Assembly: GCA_019058015.1 (NCBI GenBank)
Contig: JAHLWH010000072.1
Coordinates: 1-14,755, forward strand
Length of the DNA stretch: 14,755 nt
Direction: 5' to 3'
Origin: Promethearchaeota archaeon
GTDB lineage: Archaea > Asgardarchaeota > Lokiarchaeia > Sigyniarchaeales > SOKP01
Made by a program: the position numbers and the translations under genes. The notes under the pieces are model-generated. The model searched no databases. It saw nothing but the letters and a program-made list of their open reading frames with translations, and was not told where the DNA came from. Positions 4,586-8,481 of the stretch are shown here, one piece after another (position 1 is the first letter of the stretch; every line of letters starts with the position of its first letter).

Positions 4586-5542
4586 TTATTTCCAAGTCTT
4601 TTTAAATACTCTTAATAAATTCTCATGAGAGATCTTATTAATGTCCTGTTCACTATATCCATGTTCTAGGAGATACTCCCAAAATGCCGGAAATGTCGAG
4701 CAATCCTTAAGAGAGTCGGGGACGGAGGTACCGTCATAATCAGAACCAATAGCGACTGTATTAATGTCTGTTAAATTTATTAGATAATCCATTTGATCTT
4801 TGATCACGTCAAACCCGAGATTAGGATCTTGTTTTCCAGGGTTTTCAGCATTTAAGAAAGCCGTTGAAAAATTTATTCCTATAGTTCCTTTTTTTTCCTG
4901 AATGGCTTTAATTTGATTGTCGGTAAGGTTTCTGGGATGATTTGTAAGTGATCTAGCATTTGAGTGTGTTGCAATAATTGGCTTTTTCGCTATTTCATGT
5001 AAGTCCCAAAATGAAGGATCATTTAAATGAGAGACGTCAATTGTTATACCTAACGATTGTGCTTCAAATATCAATTCTCTACCATTGTCCGTTAATCCGG
5101 ATTTTTTTTGATGCTTTATGAATCTTGCTCCTGTTCCAAATTTATTTGTATTTGCCCAGGTTAGACTTATGCAACGAAGTCCAAGATGATATCCAATTCT
5201 TAAAAGATTAAAATCATCATCAATACCTCCTGCACCTTCAAAATGAAGAATTGCTCCTATTTGCATTGAATCTTTAAGTTTGGAAAAATCATTAATATTT
5301 TTAACTTGTAATAAATGATTATTAGGATCGGTAACCATTTTAAACCATAAATCTAAACCTTTAATTAGGTGATCTATAGTAACTACAGGATAAATGGCAA
5401 ACAATGCTGCTTGGACATTACCCTCTCTCATTCTGGGATAATCACAATGCCCAATTTTAGAACGTTCTGAAAAAGCACGATTCTGCTTTAGGATTTTGGT
5501 TGCAGTATCGATATGGCCATCTATTACAGGAAATTTTGTCAT
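4586..5542 (-). CDS. Membrane dipeptidase family (peptidase M19)
   Basis: 318 aa. IDGHID, HFEG, LTW, IDVSH, ATHSN, RNLTD and GSDYDG motifs. Confidence 0.92.
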   Translation of the reverse strand: MTKFPVIDGHIDTATKILKQNRAFSERSKIGHCDYPRMREGNVQAALFAIYPVVTIDHLIKGLDLWFKMVTDPNNHLLQVKNINDFSKLKDSMQIGAILHFEGAGGIDDDFNLLRIGYHLGLRCISLTWANTNKFGTGARFIKHQKKSGLTDNGRELIFEAQSLGITIDVSHLNDPSFWDLHEIAKKPIIATHSNARSLTNHPRNLTDNQIKAIQEKKGTIGINFSTAFLNAENPGKQDPNLGFDVIKDQMDYLINLTDINTVAIGSDYDGTSVPDSLKDCSTFPAFWEYLLEHGYSEQDINKISHENLLRVFKKTWK

Positions 5543-5809: not shown

Positions 5810-6052
5810 ATGGTAAATGGAACAGTTAAATGGTTTAATAGCCGAAAAGGCTATGGTTTTGTTACTTATGAGGAAGGTTCTGAAGAAAAGGACGTCTTTG
5901 TTCATTTTAGCTCTATTGTATCTGAAGAGGGTAGTTTTAAAACCTTATATGAAGGAGATAAAGTAGAATTTAATGTAACAGAGGGGCAAAAGGGTCCACA
6001 GGCTAGTGATGTAGTAGTGACTGAAAGAGCACCACAACCTCGTAGATATTAA
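5810..6052 (+). CDS. csp: Cold-shock domain protein (CspA family)
   Basis: 80 aa. GTVKWFN, RNP1 KGYGFV, RNP2 DVFVHF, FKTLYEG.VEF, GQKGPQA. Confidence 0.95.
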
Positions 6053-6126
6053 AACAAATGTTATTTTCGTAATTGATTAAAAAAGTAAAAAAAAAATTGA
6101 TTAACGAGAATAAAAGAAAATTAGAC

Positions 6127-6200
6127 AAATTAAAAAGAAGAAATAGAACAAAGAATAATCTGCATTACTAATCTTCTTTAATTTTTATTTTTTATTTTTC
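6127..6200 (+). terminator. Putative terminator of csp (imperfect hairpin plus T-rich tract)
   Basis: AAATTAAAAAGAAGAAATAG (6127-6146) pairs imperfectly with CTAATCTTCTTTAATTT (6168-6184). It is followed by a T-rich run to 6199. Confidence 0.45.
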
Positions 6201-6370
6201 AGCAATAAATAACCCAGGTTATTTTTAATTTCCCTTGTTTTCAATTAAAATTTGATTCTGTTTAACTATTTTTACTGTATAGCAATAGAATATGGGTGTA
6301 ACCCCACACCCTCTATCCCATCCGCAGAAACCGCATTTGGGACTACTTTTTTTATTATGTTATACCCAGC
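6197..6370 (-). ncRNA. Putative TnpB omega RNA (reRNA) overlapping the tnpB 3' end, with guide from flanking DNA
   Basis: GC-rich hairpins in AT-rich context on the minus strand: GUCCCA-aa-UGCGG-UUU-CUGCG-ga-UGGGAU (6343-6315) and GGGUGU-GGGGUU-ACACCC (6311-6294). The position is where TnpB omega RNAs are encoded. RNA ends are estimates. Confidence 0.65.
6219..6253. repeat. Inverted repeat at the tnpB 3' (right) end
   Basis: TTATTTTTAATTTCCCTTGTTTTCAATTAAAATTT is 29/35 identical to the reverse complement of 7538-7572, with the first 11 bp perfect. Confidence 0.85.
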
Positions 6371-7462
6371 GTTCACATCAGCATTGATGAGAATTCCTTT
6401 TTGACTCTTAAAAAGACCTCTATTTATTCGCTTTCCCGAATATTTTTTATGCCTTTTGATAGGTTCTTTATCCAAAAAACTGCATTTGGAAGTAAAAGAC
6501 TCCCCAACGATAATAATATCTATACCAACTAAAACTGATTTATATTTAATTTGATTTATTAATTTGAAAAATGGTATTTGAACAAACTTCTGATTATTGA
6601 TCTTTCCTATATTTACTTTCTGCTTCCATGCTCTATTATAACCGATTATTATTGTTCCGAAATTGTTTTCAATACAATAATTAATAACTTTTCTTGAAAT
6701 TTTATGAAATATGTCATTTATTTTGTTGTTCCGTTTTGCTGTAATCCTTTTTAATCTTTTAGTCTCGAACTTAATTCCCTGCTTATCTTTAATTGATTTT
6801 AGTTCCGCAATTCTTTTATTATAGAGTTGATTTATAGATTTAACAATACCGCCTTTAATAATAGTGGGTTTTAACCCTACATTATTTACAATAGTTGCAA
6901 TATTGTTTATCCCTAAATCAATTCCTATAACCCTATCCTTATTTAAATTTAAATTATTTATCTTTCTAGTATATATAATCTCAAAAATATAATATAATTC
7001 CTTAGGAATTATTCTTACTTGATGCAATTGGTCTCTTATTCGAGTTTTAATCGGAGATAAATCTACTTTTTCAGGAAAATGTAGATAACCATTTTTAATT
7101 CTACATTGTTGATTCGTGAAAATAGCAATAAACTCACCGTTTTTCTTCTTATATTTTGGGAGTCTAGGTCTTCCTTGATATTTCTCCGGATGTTCCTTCC
7201 ATTCTTTCATAGAATTAAAGAAAGATTTCCAATTCTTATCTAATAATTTTAATATTTGCTGGGCTGTTTGTGATGGCAATTTTCTATACGGTTCTTTGTC
7301 TTTTAATATATAACATAAATCATAATATCTCAACCAATTACCCAGATAAAAAAATTCTTGCCTAACGTAATAATTTGCTAAATTATATAAATTCTTAGAT
7401 AAATAACATAAACAAGATAAATCCCCCCTTTTCTTCATCTGTATTTGTTCGGTAAGCCTCAT
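6272..7462 (-). CDS. tnpB: TnpB-family RNA-guided endonuclease, RuvC-II-rearranged type
   Basis: 396 aa. N-terminal KNLYN and LPSQTAQQIL, RuvC-I GIDLG (D182), IIIG (G274) at the usual RuvC-II Glu position, ESFTSK (E321), RuvC-III NADVNAGYNI (D362). Confidence 0.93.
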   Translation of the reverse strand: MRLTEQIQMKKRGDLSCLCYLSKNLYNLANYYVRQEFFYLGNWLRYYDLCYILKDKEPYRKLPSQTAQQILKLLDKNWKSFFNSMKEWKEHPEKYQGRPRLPKYKKKNGEFIAIFTNQQCRIKNGYLHFPEKVDLSPIKTRIRDQLHQVRIIPKELYYIFEIIYTRKINNLNLNKDRVIGIDLGINNIATIVNNVGLKPTIIKGGIVKSINQLYNKRIAELKSIKDKQGIKFETKRLKRITAKRNNKINDIFHKISRKVINYCIENNFGTIIIGYNRAWKQKVNIGKINNQKFVQIPFFKLINQIKYKSVLVGIDIIIVGESFTSKCSFLDKEPIKRHKKYSGKRINRGLFKSQKGILINADVNAGYNIIKKVVPNAVSADGIEGVGLHPYSIAIQ

Positions 7463-7489
7463 TGGTATAAAATAAAATATTTTTTTGTC

Positions 7490-7497
7490 TTTATAAA
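7490..7497 (-). promoter_or_regulatory. Putative archaeal TATA box for tnpB (leaderless)
   Basis: TTTATAAA on the minus strand ends 28 nt upstream of the tnpB ATG (7462), with no RBS evident. The AT-rich background limits confidence. Confidence 0.45.
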
Positions 7498-7537
7498 TAA
7501 AAAGAGAGCATAGATTTATCTTAAAATATATTCAAAA

Positions 7538-7572
7538 AAAATTTAATGAATAACAAGGGGTATTAAAAATAA
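7538..7572. repeat. Inverted repeat at the tnpB 5' (left) end
   Basis: AAAATTTAATGAATAACAAGGGGTATTAAAAATAA; its reverse complement matches 6219-6253 at 29/35. Confidence 0.85.
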
Positions 7573-7662
7573 ACCAAGACCATAATTCTGCTTATTCTCA
7601 TCTTTTCCATCAATACTTTTTTTCACAAATTCCTCTTTTGAACTTGCCACCTGAGTATTCAT
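7543..7662 (-). pseudogene. Small ORF translationally coupled to abrB and interrupted by the TnpB element
   Basis: TAATG stop/start overlap with abrB at 7664-7660. Reads MNTQVASSKEEFVKKSIDGKDENKQNYGLG, then LFLIPLVIH* from element DNA (39 aa). The in-frame remainder LFIAEK* lies at 6212-6192. Confidence 0.5.
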
Positions 7663-7940
7663 TATTCTTTGCCACTTTCTCCTTGATCTTCATTCATTTC
7701 ACTTTCTATTCCCTCGTCAGGTACCTCTTTCAGAACCCCAAGTATTTTTAATGCGTACTTTTTCATTCCTTCAATTTTTGAGATTCCAATTCCTTTATTA
7801 ATATCACCAACTACTAGTAAATGATCTCCATGCTTGATGTGGAATAAATCTCTAGCTTCTTTTGGTATAACTATCTGTCCTCTTTCTCCAACTTTAACCA
7901 TTCCGAAAATATATTTATCTTTATATATCCTAGCCATCAT
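7662..7940 (-). CDS. AbrB/MazE/SpoVT-family DNA-binding regulator
   Basis: 92 aa. FGMVKVGERGQIVIPKEARDLFHIKHGDHLLV swapped-hairpin signature, with an acidic C-terminal tail. Confidence 0.9.
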   Translation of the reverse strand: MMARIYKDKYIFGMVKVGERGQIVIPKEARDLFHIKHGDHLLVVGDINKGIGISKIEGMKKYALKILGVLKEVPDEGIESEMNEDQGESGKE

Positions 7941-7968: not shown

Positions 7969-8481
7969 TTAAATCTTAGATGAAAATAACTTTGGAAACC
8001 ATTTTCCAACTCTCTTTTTATACTCCGTATATTCCTCACCAAAAATCTTTTCAAGATCTTTCTCTTCATAGGACGCAAATCGATCATATAGAATAGACAT
8101 TAGAATCCAAAAAATAATGCAAATAAGCGACATTGATATTAAAGCAAACGCAAGATATACTAAAAGCATACTGAGATATAAAGGATGTCGAACACGGGCA
8201 AAAACTCCTTTTTTTATAAGAGATGTTGCTTCATTATTTCCTCCAAATAAAACTTTATGAGAAGAATTCCCCAGTACAAAGGATAAAATCAATAAACTAG
8301 CGAAAATAATTATTCGAATTAACAATGGGATAAAAATCGTAAGCCATATTGAGAATTGAAATATAAAAGTATCTAAAAACCATATTAGTAAAAATGCTAT
8401 AGCAAGGATGATATTAAGCTGGTCTGTGTGAGGAAACTCCTTTCCTATACCACCACGTTTATGTTTATGTTTTTTTTTCAA
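7969..8481 (-). CDS. Isoprenylcysteine carboxyl methyltransferase / PEMT-family membrane methyltransferase
   Basis: 170 aa with hydrophobic helices, GVFARVRHPLY and EEKDLEKIFGEEYTEYKKRVGKWFP motifs. The TTG start is supported by an AGGTGA RBS at 8494-8489. Confidence 0.88.
   Translation of the reverse strand: MKKKHKHKRGGIGKEFPHTDQLNIILAIAFLLIWFLDTFIFQFSIWLTIFIPLLIRIIIFASLLILSFVLGNSSHKVLFGGNNEATSLIKKGVFARVRHPLYLSMLLVYLAFALISMSLICIIFWILMSILYDRFASYEEKDLEKIFGEEYTEYKKRVGKWFPKLFSSKI

Follow-up and report, generated by a model that had tools for sequence, protein, structure and literature searches.

A tnpB-only element of a Promethearchaeota archaeon with terminal inverted repeats and a family of copies marked by 8-bp target duplications

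TnpB is the ancestor of Cas12 and of the eukaryotic Fanzors, and its accepted role is homing, which offsets the loss of the element on excision; this model comes from the scarless transposition of IS605 and IS607. Inverted ends combined with a fixed 8-bp duplication are the mark of a DDE-type staggered cut, and duplications of 2-3 bp are made by elements of the ISL2, IS630 and IS1031 types. In reviews and older analyses, TnpB carriers are described as having neither inverted ends nor target duplications, and neither is produced by Y1 (IS200/IS605) or serine (IS607) transposition (PMC4810608; PMC13565253; PMC3119063). The available part of the 2023 survey by Altae-Tran et al. reports that some TnpBs accompany DDE transposases, that others, in Asgard archaea, are linked to Cas1, and that some solo TnpBs share their type of end with elements encoding a transposase (PMC10691335). 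A 2026 review, citing this survey, names the DDE types as ISL2, IS630 and IS1031 and describes DDE partners as rare in prokaryotes, which is attributed to the scarless-excision homing model (PMC13565253). For the IS6 family, 8-bp repeats, miniature inverted-repeat transposable elements (MITEs) consisting of the ends only and one member with a passenger gene are described in the available part of a dedicated review (PMC7986276). The element analysed here carries a solo tnpB gene and is located in a 14,755-nt stretch (the window, contig JAHLWH010000072.1) of a Promethearchaeota archaeon (assembly GCA_019058015.1). A first-pass annotation of the sequence had reported 35-bp inverted repeats around this gene and stated that prokaryotic TnpB carriers lack inverted ends, which is outdated in view of the DDE-linked TnpBs in the available part of the 2023 survey (PMC10691335). 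As DDE-linked TnpBs with inverted ends are already published, it is the separate IS6-like partner and the 8-bp duplication that differ here. The element is probably a non-autonomous carrier of tnpB and omega RNA, placed between IS6-like ends and moved in trans by a transposase of the partner type.

An inverted-repeat search of the window paired 6219-6253 with 7538-7572, two arms of 35 nt complementary at 29 of 35 positions. The repeat described in the first-pass annotation was thus recovered by reading and by the search alike, together with the perfectly matching outer 11 nt (TTATTTTTAAT) and the block CCCTTGTT common to both arms. It reaches two bases beyond the reported arms (6217-6253 versus 7538-7574), with position 2 altered at the tnpB-upstream end. 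A chance pairing in AT-rich DNA might be suspected, as the own genome has a G+C content of only 29.4% and the same 1.8 kb (6000-7800) holds numerous weaker inverted pairs, the 35-nt pair being the longest of 36. This explanation is refuted. The top 35-nt inverted match between 6100-6400 and 7400-7700 (301-nt flanks) had a score of 29, reached by none of 1000 dinucleotide-preserving shuffles (mean 22.2, maximum 26) and by none of 1000 natural 301-nt window pairs located 1.3 kb apart in the same genome (maximum 27). Across 41 genomes, the end pattern gave about 52 matches versus 10 for the reversed-pattern control, which had no match in the own genome (G000), G002 or G011. The repeat also coincides with the copy boundaries and is kept in relatives, where it still bounds homologous tnpB loci whose proteins are only about 70% identical. 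The inner block CCCTTGTT, previously proposed to be an accessory binding site, turned out not to be a separate one, as it is part of the core TTTTTAATTTCCCTT. This core is common to the ends of the transposase-bearing insertion sequence described below and also forms part of a predicted RNA hairpin.

The window corresponds to contig C64 of the own assembly (3.84 Mb, 283 contigs, 94% complete), in which two further full copies, C98 (92%) and C267 (89%), partial copies C234 and C237 and solo ends C55 and C272 were found. The own-genome copies differ from one another by 8-11%. Homology among them starts at 6216/6217 (A/GGTTATTTTTAAT...) and stops at 7569-7572, and among contigs from four public sediment/subsurface runs, those of three runs part from the window exactly at 6216 and those of two at 7569/7571. 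Because copy homology and contig breaks stop there, the inverted repeats were recognised as the ends of a mobile unit, placed by copy comparison at 6217 (GG...) and 7574 (Table 1). Ten related loci from named public genomes all came from Asgard metagenome-assembled genomes (Promethearchaeota, Promethearchaeia and Hermodarchaeota), and the 20-nt end was present in 63 of the 161 genomes of the class that were scanned. Two deletion derivatives were identified, a MITE-like form of 133 bp consisting of the ends only (L094, G132:C11:8017-8149) and a form of 836 bp (L165, G081:C74:15248-16083), each with its own 7/8 duplication.

The target duplications were evaluated for 15 two-ended elements, 3 from the own genome and 12 from other Asgard genomes, including the 836-bp and 133-bp derivatives; insertions present under both a genome (G) handle and a locus (L) number were counted once. 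The 8-bp flanks were identical (8/8) in six elements (C98, L048, L053, L019, L166 and L176) and matched at 7/8 positions in four more (L051, L054, L165 and L094). At this base composition, the chance of a match of at least 7/8 is 0.0011 per site, and that of at least 10 such elements among 15 is 7e-27. The C98 copy has GAGTTTAA on both sides. Its site was found unoccupied in two sister species, in which the 8 bp occur once, as GAGTTTAA in G004:C12 and GAGTTCAA in G001:C32, within flanks 96-97% identical to those of G000. Since 8-bp duplications and an empty site holding the 8 bp once were observed, movement of the IS200/IS605 or IS607 type is excluded. The conserved inverted ends and the 8-bp duplications, unlike anything in IS200/IS605 or IS607, bear out the earlier suggestion of an atypical end architecture. 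The CCA triplets noticed outside the arms (6214-6216 and 7574-7576) are present, but they were ruled out as a target duplication because the duplication of the family is 8 bp long and the C at 7574 lies inside the element.

The window site itself has a complex history. At the same junctions (6205-6216 and 7575-7590), an unrelated 716-bp segment with a methyltransferase-like open reading frame (ORF) was located in G001 (L040, G001:C29:440-1157), and neither the tnpB element nor the 716-bp segment was present in G004 (L057, G004:C8:451861-451931). As the same two breakpoints differ three ways in G000, G001 and G004, the window site has been remodelled. No empty form of it was found in the four public read runs.

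The search for an autonomous partner with the same ends, also suggested in the first-pass annotation, led to a transposase-bearing element in related genomes. The 12 end matches in G080, representing the variant GATAATTTTTAATTTCCCTT, were all located about 35 nt from contig ends and were followed by two kinds of inner sequence, neither of which equals the tnpB right end. The same end repeat breaks contigs in G077 (9 ends), G009 and G117. Where a few hundred bases were assembled, an ORF with a zinc-ribbon-like N-terminus began about 145 nt inside the end. A complete transposase element was detected in G010 (L122, contig C224, positions 561-2055). It is 1,495 bp long, with ends agreeing at 22 of 23 positions and a sole ORF (708-1967, 420 aa) matching Pfam DDE_Tnp_IS240 (36.2 bits, cut-off 27). 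The L122 end shares 19 of 23 positions with the window end and 21 of 23 with either end, left or right, of the relatives. A homologue of 37-38% identity, encoded in the closed genome G044, belongs to an element of 1,461 bp with ends GAGAATTTCTYAATTCCCATGA, and exact 8-bp duplications (TTAATAAG and CGAAAAGA) were found in two of its three copies examined. A decayed remnant of the IS6-like transposase element, about 640 bp long (L126, G004:C10:600845-601400), was present in a sister species without full tnpB copies, and therefore the transposase element was once present in this genus. The two genes were found apart: tnpB was absent from all 33 loci retrieved with a transposase gene as the starting point, and among the other 145 loci a single weak transposase match was detected near a tnpB homologue (L026, E 2e-5, 74 aa), the remaining matches belonging to loci that had been retrieved by the ends of the transposase element itself.

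Candidates for the mover were also sought in the own genome. Self-megablast with ORF clustering revealed no multi-copy transposase family, only paralogous large proteins. The own genome gave no match to Y1 transposase (PF01797; the control search found this family in 6 of 14 control genomes), Cas1 (PF01867) or the IS1595 domain, and no second gene was found between the element ends. ISL3-like DDE genes were present at G000:C252 (~297-2100), C159 (1231-3025), C217 and C194. The C159 element has 25-nt inverted ends (AGGAYTAAATGTTA...) and those of C217 and C194 begin TAGAGTATGAT..., and because of these different ends the ISL3-like transposases were ruled out as the partner. In the C252 copy, the gene is split into two overlapping frames. 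ISH6 elements are 1.45 kb long, with 8-bp repeats and GGT ends. ISH6 was rejected as the partner family, as it is Mutator/IS256-like (PMC3942029) and the partner matches IS240 only.

The gene carried by the window element is the sole long ORF between the arms. Its product matched Pfam OrfB_IS605 (E 4e-21, 75.9 bits, cut-off 30.5), Pfam Cas12f1-like_TNB (E 7.3e-8, 32.9 bits, cut-off 26.3) and NCBIfam guided_TnpB (174.3 bits, cut-off 100). In an alignment of 8 homologues, 68-88% identical to the window protein, the residues D182 (IGIDLG), E321 (ESFTSKCS) and D362 (NADVNA) were invariant; they are presumably those of the three RuvC catalytic motifs. The same alignment showed a single cysteine left where a zinc finger is usual in TnpB. 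Pairwise dN/dS values could be computed for 23 of 28 pairs and were between 0.07 and 0.26 in these, and therefore the protein has been under purifying selection. The gene is intact in C64 and C267, and the C98 tnpB has a stop at codon 50. A profile of the 8 homologues, compared with all solved chains, gave seven matches at E <= 0.001, the names being TnpB, Cas12f, AI-designed nucleases and a protein with an IS605 OrfB domain. As no match bears the name Fanzor, no link to Fanzors was seen.

The first-pass annotation had proposed that the right-end repeat doubles as the 3' part of the omega RNA. A predicted hairpin supports this role, for the arm at 6217-6253 and not for that at 7538-7572, since tnpB lies on the minus strand and the omega RNA would end in the low-coordinate arm. 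Twenty right ends of diverged copies aligned well from the last tnpB codons to the terminal ATAACC. RNAalifold applied to them returned 19 pairs in the upstream part; as the 3' stems are in shifted registers, upstream stems only were obtained, and the tails were then folded singly. A terminal hairpin was predicted in the last 48 nt of 19 of the 20 right ends. The inverted-repeat core (GGGAAAUUAAAA) makes up its 3' arm, after which AUAACC is left unpaired, and its 5' arm is internal and in most relatives present at the right end only. Two G011 copies with C for U in the repeat have G for A opposite (G-C versus A-U), and one copy is mismatched. The first base beyond the right end was T in every copy examined except one of 13 remnants in G011. 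No Rfam match was obtained for the region at E <= 1. The hairpin is consistent with selection for structure in the RNA, acting on a sequence that is also a putative transposase-binding site.

If the omega RNA runs into the flank, its guide would consist of the 8-bp duplication and the following bases and so would match the unoccupied site. As such a guide would begin with the duplicated 8 bp, a target-adjacent motif (TAM) is expected directly 5' of them on the tnpB strand. At this upstream duplication boundary, TTA/T (the slash marks the boundary) was found in 18 of 21 independent tnpB-element insertions (left-end side), the other three flanks being ATA/T, ATA/T and CTA/T; three seemingly orthologous or duplicated flanks (L180, L184 and L187) were dropped from this set. 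The genome background of TTAT is 1.4%. At the ends of the transposase-bearing element, TTA/T was present in 4 of 25 cases and T as the first duplicated base in 10 of 25, and on the right-end side of tnpB elements with duplications TTA was present in 3 of 9. In Fisher tests, the tnpB elements differed from the transposase-element ends (p = 2.2e-6) and the left side from the right side (p = 0.008). Such an excess and asymmetry of TTA/T is what a TAM filter would leave. TTAT is also the TAM of another TnpB, IsDge10, according to the available part of the source (PMC11589281).

Together these results suggest the following course of events. The ends of the tnpB element, inverted repeats of about 23-37 bp, match those of an IS6-like insertion sequence of 1.46-1.5 kb with one 420-aa DDE transposase. 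Supplied in trans, this transposase would recognise the repeat core that the two elements have in common and insert the tnpB element at cuts staggered by 8 bp, giving the 8-bp duplications. When transcribed, the right repeat may fold back onto a complementary stretch inside the element, making the final hairpin of the omega RNA, which would be followed by AUAACC and by flanking DNA as the guide. Such a guide would correspond to the insertion site where this is still empty, and TnpB could cut the empty site if a TAM is directly upstream of the duplicated 8 bp. The preponderance of TTA/T suggests that insertions beside this motif persist or spread by homing. Taken one step further, an IS6-like DDE transposon of Asgard archaea may have taken up tnpB and omega RNA as its only cargo, with the RNA fused to the transposase-binding repeat; as the transposase supplies no fixed target motif, only insertions 8 bp downstream of TTA(T) would be driven or retained by TnpB cutting, leaving an asymmetric TAM footprint. 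This further step, unlike the carrier reading itself, is tentative and rather less likely to be right than wrong.

A carrier with IS6-like ends, mobilised in trans, has to be confronted with several observations that weigh against it. The 8-bp flanks were unrelated in five of the 15 elements (C64 4/8, C267 2/8, L047 2/8, L049 4/8 and L050 5/8); the window copy (C64) is thus itself without duplication, and the C267 copy replaced 24 bp of target that three relatives keep. L122, the one complete close copy of the partner element, has no duplication. Its transposase covers only positions 3-89 of 139 of the DDE_Tnp_IS240 model and scored under the NCBIfam cut-offs for IS6 (42.2 bits, cut-off 125) and IS1 (38.4 bits, cut-off 100), and because of the partial Pfam match and these scores the name IS6-like stands for a loose placement. 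The ends of the two elements differ at 2-4 of 23 positions, and cross-recognition of such ends by one transposase is putative. No homologue of the partner transposase was found by tblastn in the own assembly; as such repeats are often lost from assemblies of this kind, the absence neither supports nor excludes the transposase. Of the five genomes with the six exact duplications, G077 alone also shows the transposase-bearing element. Regarding the RNA, RNAalifold did not give the terminal hairpin from the 20-sequence alignment. Regarding the motif, TTA alone was found at 7 of the 25 transposase-element ends, and since these ends also show some TTA, part of the TTA signal probably reflects the transposase's own preference. 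Some of these points would also suit immobile relics, derived from one old capture of tnpB in an insertion sequence and spread by duplication or recombination: two of the three own copies are without duplications and the partner transposase is missing from the own assembly, and the 8-11% divergence of the own copies, the stop in the C98 gene and the many solo ends, as in G011, point the same way. Such a history is unlikely nonetheless, as the insertion sites are mutually unrelated, each with its own 8-bp duplication, the C98 site is empty in two sister species within almost identical flanks and the 133-bp and 836-bp derivatives have duplications of their own.

The other alternatives concern the mover. 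An ordinary IS1341-type element of the IS200/IS605 group, mobilised as single-stranded DNA by a Y1 TnpA acting in trans, would account for the tnpB-only content and the size; the repeats would then be the usual subterminal hairpins, small hairpins being possible at both ends, and the short conserved TTAT upstream would resemble a TnpA target site. It is nevertheless highly improbable, since Y1 elements are without duplication or inverted ends (PMC4810608; PMC13565253), whereas 10 of 15 elements have an 8-bp duplication and the empty site shows the 8 bp once. Moreover, the duplication separates the TTAT motif from the element end, the ends equal those of a DDE element and no Y1_Tnp match was obtained in the own genome. 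Mobilisation by a different enzyme, either an Asgard Cas1-like transposase or the ISL3-like transposases of the own genome, which also make 8-bp duplications, is another candidate. Repeat-flanked Cas1-associated TnpBs are placed in Asgard archaea in the available part of the 2023 survey (PMC10691335). ISL3-type DDE genes are present at four own-genome loci, and G002, which has full copies of the tnpB element, shares a 330-bp stretch (95% identity) with the C217 ISL3-like element. Against both stand the lack of a Cas1 match in the own genome, the different sequence of the ISL3-like ends and the fact that no such gene was seen inside any copy, which makes this alternative improbable. The explanation favoured here for the tnpB element is mobilisation in trans by the transposase of the element sharing its ends.

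Table 1. Features of the tnpB element (positions in the window)
Feature	Coordinates	Strand	Remarks
Whole element	6217..7574, 1,358 bp	-	Probable non-autonomous tnpB carrier; register set by copy comparison
Terminal inverted repeat, tnpB-downstream (right) end	6217..6253	.	GGTTATTTTTAATTTCCCTTGTT...; first 20-23 nt identical or nearly so in relatives; 19/23 identical to the L122 end
Terminal inverted repeat, tnpB-upstream (left) end	7538..7574	.	Reverse complement GTTTATTTTTAATACCCCTTGTT...; 3 mismatches to the 23-nt consensus
tnpB, intact	6272..7462	-	396 codons and stop; Pfam and NCBIfam matches, conserved D/E/D
Presumed omega RNA scaffold, 3' part	6217..6330	-	Alignment of 20 right ends; overlaps the last tnpB codons and runs to the element end
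Terminal hairpin of the presumed omega RNA	6227..6252	-	3' arm is the inverted-repeat core; then single-stranded AAAAAUAACC (6226-6217)
Flank, putative guide in case the omega RNA continues beyond the element	6197..6216	-	By analogy with the TnpB right-end guide RNA
5'-TTAT, candidate TAM	7582..7585	-	Spans the upstream boundary of the 8-bp duplication position; C64 row: gaatta TGGTCTTG

Solo ends formed a separate group of observations. In G011, 16-17 matches to the element end were detected, and 13 of them were fetched (L074-L086, e.g. G011:C35:28926-28948 and G011:C16:10229-10251). They are solo right-end remnants of 35-150 nt, all beginning at the outer GG and adjoining ordinary genes, without tnpB, and a search for inverted partners of these 13 ends found none. 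Some solo repeats carry the same variant bases in two species (G000:C272:20275-20297 and G004:C11:31247-31269; G000:C55:46916-46938 and G001:C54:37490-37512) and look like old remnants, older than the species split. One solo repeat falls within the last codons of an ORF encoding a 408-aa membrane protein. Four tnpB paralogues, 45-68% identical, are also encoded in the own genome (G000:C54:1004-2188, C105:7593-8762, C45:496-1653 and C203:14734-15948). No comparable inverted ends were seen at these four genes, the right end of the C54 paralogue still terminating in GATAACC, and therefore several types of tnpB-element ends coexist in one genome. The neighbours of the window element were ordinary genes in a domain search (5810-6052 on the plus strand; 7662-7940, 7969-8481 and 4586-5542 on the minus strand), the kinds encountered being a cold-shock domain protein, an AbrB/MazE-type small DNA-binding protein, a PEMT/ICMT-like methyltransferase and an M19 dipeptidase.

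The family is widespread in Asgard archaea. In it, nature offers a way to ask if TnpB is of advantage to a transposon that makes duplications and is presumably replicative. It illustrates a guide RNA and a putative transposase-binding site residing in one sequence, and also how a TAM requirement can be satisfied although the motif does not come from the transposase. The protein itself is a compact TnpB for which the scaffold end can be predicted and TTAT is a candidate TAM. For annotation, this means that a tnpB-only element should not be assigned to the IS1341 type by default. If the proposed course of events is true, the family would be the first sign of TnpB homing that works with a duplication-making prokaryotic DDE transposon and shapes its insertion landscape, and it would parallel, in a prokaryote, the Fanzor lifestyle, among the archaea most closely related to eukaryotes.

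Compared with known systems, the element resembles several of them in part. In the literature search, which did not extend to the supplementary files of the 2023 survey, where such a branch may be listed, no IS6-like TnpB partner was described; the same search, with the same supplementary files outside it, gave no 8-bp-duplicating tnpB-only family and no TAM at a duplication boundary. The DDE-1 to DDE-6 TnpBs (Altae-Tran 2023, PNAS; e.g. the IS630-linked ones), as presented in the available part of that paper, likewise have symmetrical inverted terminal repeats, with the 3' end of tnpB near one end. In these, however, the transposase lies beside tnpB, whereas in the window family the two belong to separate elements, with a transposase of IS6/IS240-like type and duplications of 8 bp. 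The IS1341 group shares with the window element the length of about 1.3-1.4 kb, a single tnpB, a 3' guide RNA region and the occurrence in multiple, often decayed copies. It has no inverted ends or duplications, is inserted immediately 3' of a target of 4-5 nt and depends on a Y1 TnpA, whereas the window element has both inverted ends and a family-wide 8-bp duplication and its own genome gave no Y1 match. The element also resembles IS6/IS26 elements and their MITEs, for which the available part of the review describes short inverted ends beginning with G, 8-bp duplications, a single transposase gene in autonomous members and end-only derivatives, as well as long forms with N-terminal zinc-finger extensions, reminiscent of the zinc-ribbon-like N-terminal stretch of the partner transposase; the members listed there include one whose passenger gene has no known function but none that carries tnpB (PMC7986276). 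IS6/IS26 elements are typically about 0.8 kb long, compared with 1.46-1.5 kb for the partner element, the transposase of which is only a distant relative. The window protein differs from Fanzors in its TnpB size (396 aa), the usual D/E/D arrangement and the lack of sequence affinity in the structure search. Nevertheless, Fanzor transposons likewise combine a TnpB-type cargo with inverted ends, target duplications and a guide RNA ending in or near the terminal repeat (PMC13565253).

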